From NCBI RefSeq assembly GCF_013167455.1, contig NZ_CP038328.1: a stretch of 64,000 bases of DNA. One strand, given 5' to 3'. A program made the position numbers and the translations under genes. Under the pieces are notes generated by a model that worked only from the letters and a program-made list of their open reading frames with translations, was not told where the DNA came from and made no database searches. The stretch is from Escherichia coli O157:H7. GTDB taxonomy: Bacteria; Pseudomonadota; Gammaproteobacteria; Enterobacterales; Enterobacteriaceae. Positions 22,805 through 46,233 of this stretch are shown one piece after another (position 1 is the stretch's first letter; every line of letters starts with the position of its first letter).

Positions 22805-22935
22805 TGGGGCTTCCTTGTGACTTTTTGTATTAAGTGTAGCGGGAGTCACGACGGCAATATTCTGATTCTTACTGCTGATTTTCACGTCAGCACGTGGTAA
22901 AAATGAAACACTGTTGTAAAAATGTGGTGATCCTC

Positions 22936-33695: not shown

Positions 33696-33768
33696 GACCC
33701 CGTTGTCTCTTCCCGGTATTTCATCTCTATGTCACATTTTGTGCGTAATTTATTCACAAGCCTGCATT

Positions 33769-35013: not shown

Positions 35014-36117
35014 ATGAACATAAAGGGTAAAGCGTTACTGGCAGGATGTATCGCGCTGGCATTCAGCAATATGGCTCTGGCAGAAGATATTAAAGTCGCG
35101 GTCGTGGGCGCAATGTCCGGTCCGGTTGCGCAGTACGGTGACCAGGAGTTTACCGGCGCAGAGCAGGCGGTTGCGGATATCAACGCTAAAGGCGGCATTA
35201 AAGGCAACAAACTGCAAATCGTAAAATATGACGATGCCTGTGACCCGAAACAGGCGGTTGCGGTGGCGAACAAAGTCGTTAACGACGGCATTAAATACGT
35301 GATTGGTCACCTCTGTTCTTCATCAACGCAGCCTGCGTCTGACATCTACGAAGACGAAGGCATTTTAATGATCACCCCAGCGGCAACCGCGCCGGAGCTG
35401 ACCGCCCGTGGCTATCAGCTGATCCTGCGCACCACCGGCCTGGACTCCGACCAGGGGCCGACGGCGGCGAAATATATTCTTGAGAAAGTGAAACCGCAGC
35501 GTATTGCTATCGTTCACGACAAACAGCAATACGGCGAAGGTCTGGCACGAGCGGTGCAGGACGGCCTGAAGAAAGGCAATGCTAACGTGGTGTTCTTTGA
35601 TGGTATCACCGCCGGGGAAAAAGATTTCTCAACGCTGGTGGCGCGTCTGAAAAAAGAGAATATCGACTTCGTTTACTACGGCGGTTATCACCCGGAAATG
35701 GGGCAAATCCTGCGTCAGGCACGCGCGGCAGGGTTGAAAACTCAGTTTATGGGGCCGGAAGGCGTGGCTAACGTCTCGCTGTCTAACATTGCGGGCGAAT
35801 CAGCGGAAGGGCTGCTGGTGACCAAGCCGAAGAACTACGATCAGGTTCCGGCGAACAAACCCATTGTTGATGCGATCAAAGCGAAAAAACAGGACCCAAG
35901 CGGCGCATTCGTTTGGACCACCTACGCCGCGCTGCAATCTTTGCAGGCGGGCCTGAATCAGTCTGACGATCCGGCTGAAATCGCCAAATACCTGAAAGCG
36001 AACTCCGTGGATACCGTAATGGGACCGCTGACCTGGGATGAGAAAGGCGATCTGAAAGGCTTTGAGTTCGGTGTGTTTGACTGGCACGCCAACGGCACGG
36101 CAACCGATGCGAAGTAA
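35014..36117 (+). CDS. livJ: Leu/Ile/Val-binding periplasmic protein LivJ
   Basis: Start at [11 protein letters not shown] gives 367 aa with signal peptide; the sequence is a paralogue of the livK product downstream. Confidence 0.93.
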
Positions 36118-36266: not shown

Positions 36267-36533
36267 ATGTCTGCTGTTAAAAAGCAGCGTATCGATCTGC
36301 GTTTAACTGACGATGACAAAAGTATGATTGAGGAAGCGGCAGCGATATCTAATCAGTCCGTCAGCCAATTTATGTTGAACAGCGCTTCGCAGCGGGCTGC
36401 GGAAGTGATTGAACAGCATCGGCGGGTGATCCTCAATGAGGAATCCTGGACGCGGGTGATGGATGCGCTGAGTAATCCACCGTCACCAGGTGAAAAGCTA
36501 AAACGTGCGGCAAAACGTCTTCAGGGAATGTAA
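36267..36533 (+). CDS. DUF1778-family antitoxin (TacA/AtaR/ItaR-like) of a GNAT toxin-antitoxin module
   Basis: 88 aa, 6 nt upstream of a GNAT toxin gene; small charged protein typical of DUF1778 antitoxins. Confidence 0.8.
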   Translation: MSAVKKQRIDLRLTDDDKSMIEEAAAISNQSVSQFMLNSASQRAAEVIEQHRRVILNEESWTRVMDALSNPPSPGEKLKRAAKRLQGM

Positions 36534-41993: not shown

Positions 41994-42707
41994 ATGGAAA
42001 AAGTCATGTTGTCCTTTGACAAAGTCAGCGCCCACTACGGCAAAATCCAGGCGCTGCATGAGGTGAGCCTGCATATCAATCAGGGCGAGATTGTCACGCT
42101 GATTGGCGCGAACGGGGCGGGGAAAACCACCTTGCTCGGCACGTTATGCGGCGATCCGCGCGCCACCAGCGGGCGAATTGTGTTTGATGATAAAGACATT
42201 ACCGACTGGCAGACGGCGAAAATCATGCGCGAAGCGGTAGCGATTGTCCCGGAAGGGCGTCGCGTCTTCTCGCGGATGACGGTGGAAGAGAACCTGGCGA
42301 TGGGCGGCTTTTTTGCCGAACGTGATCAGTTTCAGGAGCGCATAAAGTGGGTGTATGAGCTGTTTCCACGTCTTCATGAGCGTCGTGTTCAGCGGGCAGG
42401 CACCATGTCCGGCGGTGAACAGCAGATGCTGGCGATTGGTCGCGCGCTGATGAGCAATCCGCGTTTGTTGTTGCTTGATGAGCCATCGCTCGGTCTTGCG
42501 CCGATTATCATCCAGCAAATTTTCGACACCATCGAGCAGCTGCGCGAGCAGGGGATGACTATCTTCCTCGTCGAGCAGAACGCCAACCAGGCGCTGAAGC
42601 TCGCTGATCGCGGCTACGTGCTGGAAAACGGCCATGTTGTGCTCTCCGATACTGGTGATGCGCTGCTGGCGAACGAAGCAGTGAGAAGTGCGTATTTAGG
42701 CGGGTAA
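41994..42707 (+). CDS. livF: Branched-chain amino-acid ABC ATPase LivF
   Basis: Start at MEKVMLSFDKV gives 237 aa; Walker A GANGAGKTT. Confidence 0.93.
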   Translation: MEKVMLSFDKVSAHYGKIQALHEVSLHINQGEIVTLIGANGAGKTTLLGTLCGDPRATSGRIVFDDKDITDWQTAKIMREAVAIVPEGRRVFSRMTVEENLAMGGFFAERDQFQERIKWVYELFPRLHERRVQRAGTMSGGEQQMLAIGRALMSNPRLLLLDEPSLGLAPIIIQQIFDTIEQLREQGMTIFLVEQNANQALKLADRGYVLENGHVVLSDTGDALLANEAVRSAYLGG

Positions 42708-42716
42708 ATTATCGAT

Positions 42717-42746
42717 AACCCGGCAGCTAAGTTCTGCCGGGTTATT
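42717..42746 (+). terminator. livF terminator hairpin
   Basis: Stem ACCCGGCAG/CTGCCGGGT with a 7-nt loop followed by TATTCG (short T-run). Confidence 0.55.
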
Positions 42747-42825
42747 CGTCCGTATACAGACTTGTTTCAACTGACCGGGAGGATTAAAACCAGACCACTT
42801 ATTTGCCACGGAAAGGTTCCCTCCC

Positions 42826-43572
42826 ATGCATTATGCCGTTGTTGTCATGCTTGAACTGCTTTGCTGTATTCACGCTTACCGTACCGGACAAGAGCGGTAC
42901 TGGATTTTTATCATTTTCTGTTTTCCGGTGATTGGCTGCGTGGCGTATTTCGTCATAGTGATGCTGCCTGAAACGGGCGCTGACCGTCACGGGCATACTT
43001 TGCTGATGCGCCTGCAGGACAAACTCAACCCTGAGCGCCACCTGCGCAAATTAACCGAAGAACTGGCGATTGCCGAGACGAATCAAAACCATTATGCGTT
43101 GGCTAATGAACTGGCGCGTCTGGGGCGTTATCACGAAGCTGTTCCCCATTATCAGCAGGCGTTAAGCGGGATATTCGCCCATGAAGCGGCAATGATGCTA
43201 AGCCTGGCGCAGGCACAGTTTGCTATTCAGGAGTTCGCCGCCTGTCAGCAGACGCTGGAAGATGTGATGCGTTATAACCCTGATTTTCAGTCGGCAGACG
43301 GGCATTTGTTATTTGCCAGAACGTTAGCCGCACAAGAAAAATACGCTGATGCGGAAAGCGAGTTTGAAGTATTGATTTCTTATTACCCCGGCCCGCAGGC
43401 GCGTATTTACTATGCGGAAATGTTGGCGAAAATGAGTCGGTTACGTGAAGCCAACGAGCAGTATGTTGCCGTGGTTGATACGGCTAAACGCTCAAGACCT
43501 CATTATAGAAAACACCACCGGGAATGGATTAAGACCGCCAATGAGCGGCTGAAGCAGAGTGTGGTGCAATGA
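42826..43572 (+). CDS. Hypothetical membrane-anchored protein: N-terminal PLD-N-like transmembrane hairpin plus C-terminal TPR-like helical domain
   Basis: 248-aa ORF with an AAAGG ribosome-binding site; hydrophobic N-terminus (YWIFIIFCFPVIGCVAYFVIVMLPE); helical repeat C-terminus; its own terminator at 43643..43680. Confidence 0.55.
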   Translation: MHYAVVVMLELLCCIHAYRTGQERYWIFIIFCFPVIGCVAYFVIVMLPETGADRHGHTLLMRLQDKLNPERHLRKLTEELAIAETNQNHYALANELARLGRYHEAVPHYQQALSGIFAHEAAMMLSLAQAQFAIQEFAACQQTLEDVMRYNPDFQSADGHLLFARTLAAQEKYADAESEFEVLISYYPGPQARIYYAEMLAKMSRLREANEQYVAVVDTAKRSRPHYRKHHREWIKTANERLKQSVVQ

Positions 43573-43642
43573 AAATCTTCTTTGCCGTTAGACCAGTGTC
43601 GCGGCAATCTTTTGTTAAAATTGAAAAATGTAGCTCTCATCG

Positions 43643-43680
43643 GGCAGCAAAATTGGACGCAGAATTTGCTGCCATTTTTG
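43643..43680 (+). terminator. Intrinsic terminator after the 248-aa ORF
   Basis: Perfect 9-bp stem GGCAGCAAA/TTTGCTGCC with a 13-nt loop followed by ATTTTTG. Confidence 0.65.
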
Positions 43681-43795
43681 CTCTTCATGGTAAGGAGTTC
43701 TGGCGATTAGCTGGCCGTTAATCGCCTCTTTTCAGTGCATTCTCGGGATATCCGTGCCCCATCTCCCATTTTCCCTCACCCGTACCGTCACCGCC

Positions 43796-43872
43796 TTGTC
43801 ATCTTTCTGACACCTTACTATCTTACAAATGTAACAAAAAAGTTATTTTTCTGTAATTCGAGCATGTCATGT
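43796..43872 (+). promoter_or_regulatory. ugpB promoter pho-box array (PhoB binding sites)
   Basis: Tandem TGTCA-type repeats (TTGTCATCTTTCTGACACC ... CATGTCATG) ending about 60 bp before the ugpB ATG. Confidence 0.7.
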
Positions 43873-43931
43873 TACCCCGCGAGCATAAAACGCGTGAATT
43901 CGCGCATTCGGTACAACAAGAGAGATAAACG

Positions 43932-45248
43932 ATGAAACCGTTACATTATACAGCTTCAGCACTGGCGCTCGGACTGGCGTTAATGGGGAATGCACAGGCA
44001 GTGACGACCATTCCGTTCTGGCATTCTATGGAAGGGGAACTGGGTAAAGAGGTGGATTCTCTGGCCCAACGTTTTAACGCCGAAAACCCGGATTACAAAA
44101 TTGTACCGACCTATAAAGGCAATTACGAACAGAATTTAAGCGCGGGGATTGCCGCATTTCGTACCGGCAATGCTCCGGCTATTTTGCAGGTTTATGAAGT
44201 TGGCACCGCCACCATGATGGCGTCGAAAGCCATTAAACCGGTTTATGACGTGTTTAAAGAGGCGGGGATTCAATTCGATGAGTCGCAGTTTGTGCCGACG
44301 GTTTCCGGTTACTACTCCGACAGCAAAACGGGCCACTTACTCTCCCAGCCATTCAACAGCTCGACTCCCGTTCTCTATTACAACAAAGACGCCTTCAAGA
44401 AAGCGGGGTTAGACCCGGAACAACCGCCGAAAACCTGGCAGGATCTGGCGGACTATGCCGCAAAACTAAAAGCCTCCGGCATGAAGTGCGGCTACGCCAG
44501 CGGCTGGCAGGGCTGGATCCAACTGGAAAACTTTAGCGCCTGGAACGGTCTGCCGTTTGCCAGCAAAAACAACGGCTTTGACGGCACGGATGCGGTGCTG
44601 GAGTTCAACAAGCCGGAGCAGGTGAAACACATCGCCATGCTCGAAGAGATGAACAAGAAGGGCGATTTCAGCTACGTCGGGCGTAAGGATGAATCCACCG
44701 AGAAGTTCTATAACGGTGATTGCGCTATGACCACCGCCTCTTCCGGTTCTCTCGCTAATATTCGCGAGTACGCCAAATTCAACTATGGCGTAGGCATGAT
44801 GCCTTACGACGCCGATGCGAAAGATGCACCGCAAAACGCCATTATCGGCGGGGCCAGCCTGTGGGTGATGCAGGGCAAAGATAAAGAAACGTATACCGGC
44901 GTGGCGAAGTTCCTCGACTTCCTCGCGAAGCCAGAAAACGCTGCCGAGTGGCATCAGAAAACCGGTTATCTGCCAATCACCAAAGCAGCGTATGACCTGA
45001 CCCGTGAGCAGGGCTTTTATGAGAAAAACCCAGGGGCGGATACCGCGACGCGTCAGATGCTGAATAAGCCGCCGTTGCCGTTCACCAAAGGGCTGCGTCT
45101 GGGCAACATGCCGCAGATCCGCGTGATTGTGGATGAAGAGCTGGAGAGCGTGTGGACCGGTAAGAAGACACCACAGCAGGCACTGGATACCGCCGTTGAG
45201 CGTGGAAATCAGTTGCTGCGCCGCTTTGAGAAATCGACGAAGTCTTAA
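43932..45248 (+). CDS. ugpB: sn-glycerol-3-phosphate periplasmic binding protein UgpB
   Basis: 438 aa with signal peptide. Confidence 0.95.
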
Positions 45249-45326: not shown

Positions 45327-45345
45327 AGTTCAGGAATTAACCGTA

Positions 45346-46233
45346 ATGTCATCATCCCGTCCGGTGTTCCGCTCGCGCTGGCTGCCTTATCTGCTGGTCG
45401 CGCCGCAGCTCATCATCACCGTTATCTTTTTTATCTGGCCTGCGGGCGAAGCGTTGTGGTACTCGCTGCAAAGCGTCGATCCGTTTGGTTTCTCCAGCCG
45501 GTTTGTCGGCCTGGATAACTTCGTCGCGCTGTTTCATGACAGCTACTATATCGACTCCTTCTGGACGACGATAAAATTCAGCACCTTTGTCACCGTCAGC
45601 GGTTTGCTGGTATCGCTGTTCTTTGCGGCGCTGGTGGAGTACATCGTGCGCGGCAGTCGTTTCTATCAAACCTTGATGCTGCTGCCGTATGCCGTGGCTC
45701 CCGCCGTTGCCGCCGTATTGTGGATCTTCCTGTTTAACCCCGGTCGCGGGCTGATCACCCATTTTCTCGCTGAGTTCGGCTACGACTGGAACCACGCGCA
45801 AAACAGCGGTCAGGCAATGTTTCTGGTGGTGTTTGCCTCAGTATGGAAGCAAATCAGCTACAACTTCCTGTTCTTCTATGCCGCGCTGCAATCCATTCCC
45901 CGTTCGTTGATCGAAGCCGCAGCCATCGACGGTGCAGGGCCGATTCGCCGCTTCTTTAAGATTGCGCTGCCGCTTATCGCCCCGGTGAGTTTCTTCCTGC
46001 TGGTAGTGAACCTGGTGTATGCCTTCTTCGACACCTTCCCGGTGATCGACGCCGCCACGTCCGGCGGGCCGGTTCAGGCCACCACTACGCTGATTTATAA
46101 GATCTACCGCGAAGGCTTTACCGGACTGGATCTGGCTTCGTCTGCCGCACAGTCGGTGGTGTTGATGTTCCTCGTCATCGTGCTGACGGTGATGCAGTTC
46201 CGCTATGTTGAAAGCAAGGTGCGTTACCAATGA
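45346..46233 (+). CDS. ugpA: sn-glycerol-3-phosphate ABC permease UgpA
   Basis: 295-aa MalF-type permease. Confidence 0.95.

Follow-up and report, generated by a model that had tools for sequence, protein, structure and literature searches.

The DNA immediately upstream of ugpB in an Escherichia coli O157:H7 window (the whole 64,000-nucleotide stretch analyzed here, to which all positions refer) is, with a probability that we put at roughly 95%, the characterised ugpBAECQ regulatory region. On this reading phosphorylated PhoB (PhoB~P) would bind cooperatively and head-to-tail on three Pho boxes, with the proximal dimer recruiting the sigma-70 holoenzyme and the distal dimers both aiding loading and occluding an upstream promoter. 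Pho boxes upstream of ugpB are already known and make up a textbook regulatory region.

An earlier note on this DNA had pointed to the span 43796-43872 (TTGTCATCTTTCTGACACCTTACTATCTTACAAATGTAACAAAAAAGTTATTTTTCTGTAATTCGAGCATGTCATGT), which lies 60-136 bp upstream of the ugpB ATG. On the + strand, livM, livG and livF (which ends at 42707) are followed by a 248-codon open reading frame (ORF) at 42826-43572, a 359-bp spacer, and then ugpB (43932-45248), ugpA and ugpE. A 66-codon ORF that crosses the promoter (43735-43935) has no Pfam match and was treated as spurious. The segment 42700-44000 is 100% identical to the corresponding DNA of strains PV15-279 and ATCC 43894. The earlier note had proposed a comparison with the characterised ugp promoter, and the outcome is identity: the window matches K-12 MG1655 base for base from 43785 to the ugpB ATG. 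Homology to K-12 resumes at 43749, and the sole differences within the shared segment are GTA in the window versus ACG in K-12 at 43782-43784, 2 bp upstream of the first half-site described below. This is the same locus as the K-12 ugpBAECQ regulatory region (Kasahara et al., 1991), and every published K-12 PhoB and ArcA motif maps onto it exactly. Upstream of 43749 the two differ entirely, with a tetratricopeptide repeat (TPR) gene and a remnant of a Phd antitoxin gene in the window and REP-like repeats in K-12. MG1655 lacks the TPR ORF, and its livF-ugpB spacer consists of 398 bp of hairpin and REP-like repeats. The ugp promoter had been described as intact despite the extra gene upstream, and this holds, as divergence is confined to the DNA upstream of 43749 and almost every complete E. 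coli genome (5424 of 5426) has the 183-bp segment 43749-43931 at or above about 94% identity.

We scored the region with an 18-bp position weight matrix (PWM) built from 58 of the 59 PhoB ChIP-seq sites listed in Table 1 of Fitzgerald (2023; PMC10294691); the ugpB site was omitted from training to avoid circularity. The training sites themselves score from 6.9 to 24.4 bits, with a median of 15.7. Such a PWM scan had been suggested as a check of the array, and it places 43797-43814 (TGTCATCTTTCTGACACC) at 15.8 bits, the second-best match across both strands of the 64-kb window; the top match is the rpoH site, itself a training site. Positive + strand matches in the vicinity share a single 11-bp register (43786, 43797, 43808, 43819, 43830 and 43841). 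In all, seven half-sites, five strong and two weak, run in strict 11-bp register from 43786 to 43858 and form three contiguous Pho boxes with TTTC, CAAA and TTTC as spacers. The elements of the array are as follows, with half-sites scored by a 7-mer PWM.

43786-43792, + strand: half-site 0, CGTCACC, score 6.1; it lies just outside the span of the earlier note and with 43797-43803 forms an alternative 18-bp box of 12.05
43797, + strand: half-site TGTCATC, score 8.9
43808, + strand: half-site TGACACC, score 5.5
43819, + strand: half-site TATCTTA, score -1.9
43830, + strand: half-site TGTAACA, score 9.2
43841, + strand: half-site AGTTATT, score -2.8
43852, + strand: half-site TGTAATT, score 7.0
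43797-43814, + strand: distal Pho box, TGTCATC tttc TGACACC, the strongest at 15.8 bits and the MEME site of the K-12 ChIP-seq peak
43819-43836, + strand: middle Pho box, TATCTTA caaa TGTAACA, 8.85 bits
43841-43858, + strand: proximal Pho box, AGTTATT tttc TGTAATT, 7.3 bits and the most conserved of the three

A 7-mer score of at least 6 occurs at just 0.37% of window positions, and the next two register positions after TGTAATT fall to -10.8 and -20.6. Summed in phase, the seven half-sites reach 32.0, while no unrelated locus in the window reaches 0; the maxima in controls were 14.6 across 200 first-order Markov random 64-kb sequences and -1.2 across 2000 composition-matched shuffles of the local intergenic DNA. 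The array far exceeds chance expectation. It is also imperfect: two of its seven half-sites have negative scores, the proximal box at 7.3 bits sits close to the floor of the training range, and the first half-site of the middle box is degenerate in E. coli, where it coincides with the -10 of an upstream promoter. The several tandem PhoB half-sites that the earlier note had seen before ugpB are therefore borne out as this phased series. The array begins one half-site earlier than the span of that note, at 43786, and the final TGTCAT is out of register. We considered TGTCAT (43865-43870) as an eighth member and rejected it, as it lies 13 bp, not 11, from the last phased half-site and no 18-bp box there scores above 0.

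Published binding data fall directly on these boxes. The PhoB ChIP-seq motif of Fitzgerald (2023) corresponds to 43797-43814, and the K-12 peak center (NC_000913.3 position 3592453, with the ugpB ATG at 3592325) maps to window position 43804, within the distal box. The ChIP-seq score of 35 at ugpB is the second highest in the K-12 genome, with pstS at 38 (Fitzgerald, 2023). A ChIP-chip study reported the motif CTATCTTACAAATGTAAC, which is 43818-43835 here, with a center at -105.5 from the ATG as published (Yang, 2012), and a Salmonella study assigned to ugpB the Pho box AAGTTATTTTTCTGTCATTCGA, the counterpart of 43840-43861, PhoB-dependent expression being published in Salmonella as well. As these motifs fall on the distal, middle and proximal boxes, respectively, three independent studies each chose a different box.

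In K-12, ugpB RNA is 54,461 in wild type versus 2,830 in a phoB deletion (Fitzgerald, 2023), and RNA polymerase occupancy in ugpB, measured by ChIP-qPCR, is substantially higher for the wild type. Microarrays of the O157:H7 strain EDL933 found ugpB 7.9-fold up in low phosphate, with 5.7-fold PhoB dependence (Chekabab, 2014). A ugpB-yfp reporter answers PhoB~P; its onset time is intermediate between phoB and phoA, and its output drops at high PhoB~P, which the authors explained by an overlapping promoter (Gao and Stock, 2015). The proposed Pho-regulon control of ugpB is thus upheld by a K-12-identical array, three published motifs and expression data from K-12 and EDL933, and these data, obtained on the same sequence and in the same pathotype, contradict an absence of PhoB-dependent expression from this fragment.

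PhoB shares part of the array with its paralogue ArcA. Park et al. (2013; PMC3798270) found an ArcA ChIP peak and an operator of three direct repeats, scoring 9.9, 6.9 and 0.1 bits, upstream of ugpB.

43829-43860, + strand: ArcA operator ATGTAACAAAAAAGTTATTTTTCTGTAATTCG, as published by Park et al. (2013); the 32-mer occurs once in the window and overlaps half-sites 4-6

The ugpBAECQ operon is 8.2-fold derepressed in a K-12 arcA mutant, reflecting direct ArcA repression (Park et al., 2013), and with the overlapping site this makes the array a shared PhoB/ArcA operator over half-sites 4-6. Multi-repeat ArcA operators have 11-bp center-to-center direct repeats, and ugpB is a listed example of the three-repeat layout (Park et al., 2013); ArcA represses by occlusion, and PhoB activates from the same helical register. 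One might read the 11-bp repeats as chiefly an ArcA operator of TGTTA-like direct repeats whose likeness to Pho boxes is secondary. The ArcA peak, the three-repeat site lying exactly on 43829-43860 and the derepression without ArcA all fit that reading, as does the remark of Park et al. (2013) that ArcA and PhoB boxes are alike in spacing and composition. AGTTATT scores poorly as a PhoB half-site (-2.8) but well as an ArcA repeat (6.9 bits), and it hardly varies across species. Yet the ArcA site spans half-sites 4-6 only, the strongest PhoB box (43797-43814) and the ChIP-seq center fall outside it, and expression in K-12 is about 19-fold PhoB-dependent in the published data. We consider it very improbable that ArcA accounts for the repeats in place of PhoB; the two readings are compatible as overlapping operators, and the ArcA reading is true in addition, not instead.

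The distal half of the array overlaps a second promoter. According to a review that cites Kasahara (1991), ugp has a downstream promoter with Pho boxes and an upstream promoter under cAMP-CRP for carbon starvation. Our consensus scan finds elements that agree with this dual-promoter description, together with a candidate CRP site upstream of them.

43796-43831, + strand: upstream promoter, with a -35 TTGTCA (43796-43801), a 17-nt spacer and a -10 TATCTT (43819-43824)
43750-43771, + strand: candidate CRP site, with a core cGTGc-N6-TCcCA at 43753-43768, 3 mismatches and a center at -70.5 from a transcription start site (TSS) at 43831

Three pho boxes have reportedly been described in ugp since 1991, with the upstream promoter overlapping the upstream, third box and possibly repressed by PhoB. 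In the window this promoter overlaps the distal and middle boxes. The TSS at 43831 follows from the coordinates '-2 to +30', relative to the closest mapped TSS, that Park et al. (2013) give for the ArcA site, and it lies exactly 7 nt past TATCTT. The candidate CRP site lies fully inside the K-12-shared segment, and in the 14 loci with both TATCTT and TTGYCA its GTG...C.CA core does not vary. A center near -70.5 is a standard class I CRP position. As a bare pattern, 43753-43768 is not above chance: scanning the window for TGTGA-N6-TCACA gave 154 matches versus 206 expected, and no statistically convincing CRP site emerged from that scan. We regard it as plausible but unproven that this block, judged on its sequence, is a CRP site. 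The psiE promoter offers a parallel, in that phosphate and carbon starvation converge through PhoB and cAMP-CRP on one region as in ugp, in another gene and with another layout (Kim et al., 2000, as outlined in a review).

The CRP site of the upstream promoter could in principle be the distal box itself, since TGTCATCTTTCTGACA is palindromic and departs from TGTGA-N6-TCACA at two positions. The pattern search recovers it at that level, the box gives Pho-box scores on either strand (15.8 and 11.2), and the review cited above reports CRP control of ugp. Matches of this kind are, however, no more frequent in the window than chance predicts, and both mismatches fall at G and C positions. CRP needs the G and C positions of TGTGA-N6-TCACA. 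The center of TGTCATCTTTCTGACA, 43804.5, would be at -26.5 of the TSS at 43831, a non-activating position, while the PhoB ChIP center lies on the distal box and a better placed, co-conserved CRP-like block is available at 43753-43768. There is little chance, in our estimation, that the distal box is a CRP site rather than a PhoB site. Lastly, a chance run of TGT-rich, AT-rich promoter DNA without specific binding, to which the two degenerate half-sites and the AT-rich intergenic setting might point, is excluded by the control statistics above, the deep conservation and the published PhoB occupancy.

As for the PhoB-dependent promoter itself, promoter sequences of phoA, phoB and pstS were found at 100% identity immediately upstream of those genes in genomes, and aligning them on the proximal 18-mer gave a common arrangement of box, 10 nt and an xAxxxT hexamer: TATAGT in phoA, CATAAT in phoB and TATTTT in pstS. 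These hexamers are the real -10 elements of the three promoters, known from Makino and colleagues. The ugp region has matching geometry, with AAGTTATTTTTCTGTAAT, 10 nt and then CATGTT at 43868-43873, and with TG at 43865-43866.

43865-43873, + strand: inferred extended -10, TGT plus CATGTT, placed by spacing analogy; it includes the out-of-phase TGTCAT and has 0.97 identity over 78 species

No TTGACA-like -35 is found at the PhoB-dependent promoter of ugp; the proximal box takes the -35 position. The out-of-register TGTCAT is, on this analysis, more likely the extended -10 of that promoter, and transcription is predicted to start at about 43880. A literature search yielded no usable CRP site or TSS for ugpB, so this start site stays inferred. 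The other conserved hexamer, CATAAA (43884-43889), was rejected as a -10, lying 26 nt from the proximal box versus 10 nt in phoA, phoB and pstS. The pstS promoter, with two tandem Pho boxes and four half-sites, shares with ugp the contiguous 11-bp phasing, the box that replaces the -35, and the 10-nt gap followed by xAxxxT. Unlike pstS, ugp has three boxes with up to seven half-sites, of which the distal box is strongest and the proximal weak, and also contains a second promoter, embedded in the region, and an operator for ArcA.

These elements fit together in a model. Under phosphate limitation PhoR would phosphorylate PhoB, and PhoB~P dimers would bind head-to-tail on the three contiguous 22-bp Pho boxes, which together comprise six to seven 11-bp half-sites (43786-43858). 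PhoB probably occupies the strong distal box first, and this would help fill the weak proximal box. The promoter-proximal dimer, in the place of a -35, would then recruit sigma-70 RNA polymerase to the weak extended -10 (43865-43873), and transcription would begin near 43880 and run into ugpB. PhoB on the distal box would also cover the -35 and -10 of the upstream promoter (TSS 43831). ArcA~P, with the same 11-bp repeat geometry, would bind 43829-43860, giving anaerobic repression of the operon.

We examined how widely this architecture is kept by searching for UgpB with one genome per species, which gave 80 Enterobacterales loci; the alignment took in 78 non-E. coli loci. Every testable locus has a box of at least 8.7 bits between 90 and 250 bp upstream of ugpB (in one locus the available upstream DNA was too short for the test), in agreement with the conservation of a PhoB site upstream of ugpB orthologues described in the text on Figure 9 of Fitzgerald (2023). 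Conservation is uneven along the array. Mean identities to the window over the 78 loci, all on the + strand of the window, are listed here in map order.

Distal half-sites: 0.49-0.58
Half-site TGTAACA: 0.67
Half-site AGTTATT: 0.86
Spacer TTTC: 0.97
Half-site TGTAATT: 0.83
TGTCATGTT, following the proximal box: 0.97

The deeply conserved core consists of RGTTATTTTTCTGTMAT, six bases and TGTCATGTTA. Where E. coli has TATCTTA, the majority consensus is a good half-site, TGTCATT. TATCTT is limited to 14 loci, from Escherichia, Pseudocitrobacter, Citrobacter, Klebsiella pneumoniae, Kluyvera and Pluralibacter, and the -35 TTGYCA is common to the same loci. The co-occurrence of TATCTT, TTGYCA and the CRP-like block suggests, at the level of sequence, that the carbon-starvation promoter arose within one clade.

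The conserved 'defects' of the array could also be selected features of an operator shared by three regulators, an idea that we hold to be unlikely. Under it, the near-invariant AGTTATT may be kept as a poor PhoB but good ArcA site; the invariant TGTCATGTTA may be at once an extended -10 and a lone PhoB half-site out of register; and the upstream CRP promoter of E. coli may have been born in the Escherichia/Citrobacter/Klebsiella/Kluyvera group by decay of an ancestral TGTCATT into TATCTT. If this were true, excess PhoB~P on TGTCATGTTA could shut its own promoter, explaining the fall of the reporter at high PhoB~P (Gao and Stock, 2015).

The ugpB leader and start carry further elements.

43887-43905, + strand: A-run and 5-bp GC hairpin (GCGTG aatt CGCGC) in the ugpB leader, found by folding; read on the - strand, it has the form of an intrinsic terminator directed away from ugpB
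43918-43934, + strand: Shine-Dalgarno-like AAGAGAG and the ugpB ATG (43932)

An A-run followed by a hairpin of dG at or below -3 occurs in 58 of 75 Enterobacterales leaders, with tetraloops that vary freely and a few compensatory variants in the stem. RNAalifold on all leaders returned no consensus structure, as divergent genera broke the alignment, and per-sequence folding was used instead.

Other PhoB-like sites occur elsewhere in the window. Upstream of rpoH, at 33719-33736, the weak PhoB ChIP-seq site TTTCATCTCTATGTCACA is unchanged (ChIP score 2; Fitzgerald, 2023). At 22903-22920 lies the yhhS-associated ChIP-chip motif ATGAAACACTGTTGTAAA of Yang (2012), which scores 11.3 with our PWM and is absent from the peaks of Fitzgerald (2023). 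Two more Pho-box-like 18-mers have no published PhoB peak: ATTAACCGTAATGTCATC at 45336-45353 (+ strand, 13.2 bits), over the ugpA start codon, and AATCATACTTTTGTCATC at 36312-36329 (- strand, 14.0 bits), in the intergenic DNA after an ORF that ends at 36117.

The DNA between livF and the control region carries the following elements.

42826-43572, + strand: the 'orphan ORF' of the earlier note, a 248-aa TPR-repeat protein with a membrane anchor, which RefSeq lists as 'tetratricopeptide repeat protein'
43643-43680, + strand: terminator-like hairpin 1 with a U-rich tail, dG -18.3, z -3.0
43702-43733, + strand: terminator-like hairpin 2 with a U-rich tail, dG -16.5, z -3.1

The TPR protein matches TPR_19 and related repeats in Pfam, with a weak PLDc_N membrane anchor. 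The whole 42700-44000 region, TPR gene included, is covered in 659 of 5426 complete E. coli genomes, and the gene occurs at the same locus in Escherichia albertii (frameshifted) and Pseudocitrobacter (intact, 69% identity). From these sequence comparisons, the TPR gene has probably occupied a variable slot for a long time instead of being a recent insertion. A 50-codon ORF (43569-43721) overlaps its stop codon (ATGA) and has no Pfam match on its own. Residues 15-50 of this ORF (43611-43718) share 42% identity, across 36 aa, with the C-terminal half of a K. pneumoniae Phd/YefM antitoxin, a 77-aa protein (PF02604, E 3e-17) whose gene lies between livF and ugpB, ahead of a Doc toxin gene (PF02661); this similarity marks the ORF as the remnant of a Phd/YefM antitoxin gene.

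The array had been placed downstream of the terminator of the orphan ORF. Two hairpins do lie upstream of the ugp control region, 70-150 nt past the TPR stop codon, but they are predicted terminators inside the Phd-remnant ORF, and the first stems from its AAK...FAA codons. Given this position within a decayed phd gene, the hairpins may be incidental and not a dedicated terminator.

Intact phd-doc pairs fill the livF-ugpB spacer in K. pneumoniae, and phd-like matches were seen in that spacer in Phytobacter, Leclercia, Cedecea and some Citrobacter and Enterobacter. The hairpin that directly follows the livF stop (42715-42745, ATAACCCGGCAG...CTGCCGGGTTAT) is GC-rich and entirely unlike the K-12 hairpin after livF (GGAGTCAAAAGACTCC), and E. 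albertii has about 450 bp of extra DNA just after livF. These two differences place the start of the variable slot immediately after livF. The livF-ugpB spacer is thus a variable slot whose content may be REP-like repeats, a TPR gene or a Phd-Doc module, and in every case it stops shortly before the ugp control region, which starts at 43749.

The ugp operon of O157:H7 therefore keeps the full K-12 regulatory region, with its PhoB, ArcA and upstream-promoter elements, despite wholly different DNA upstream of 43749, and the regulation published for K-12 is for this reason transferable to this O157:H7 strain. Beyond correct annotation this matters little. What novelty remains is small and lies in the conserved imperfections of the array (AGTTATT, and the out-of-register TGTCAT over the -10), in the upstream promoter, which appears to have arisen through decay of a half-site, and in the conserved leader hairpin. 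The minor added value is evolutionary: the proximal Pho box and the extended -10 form the deeply conserved core of ugp control.
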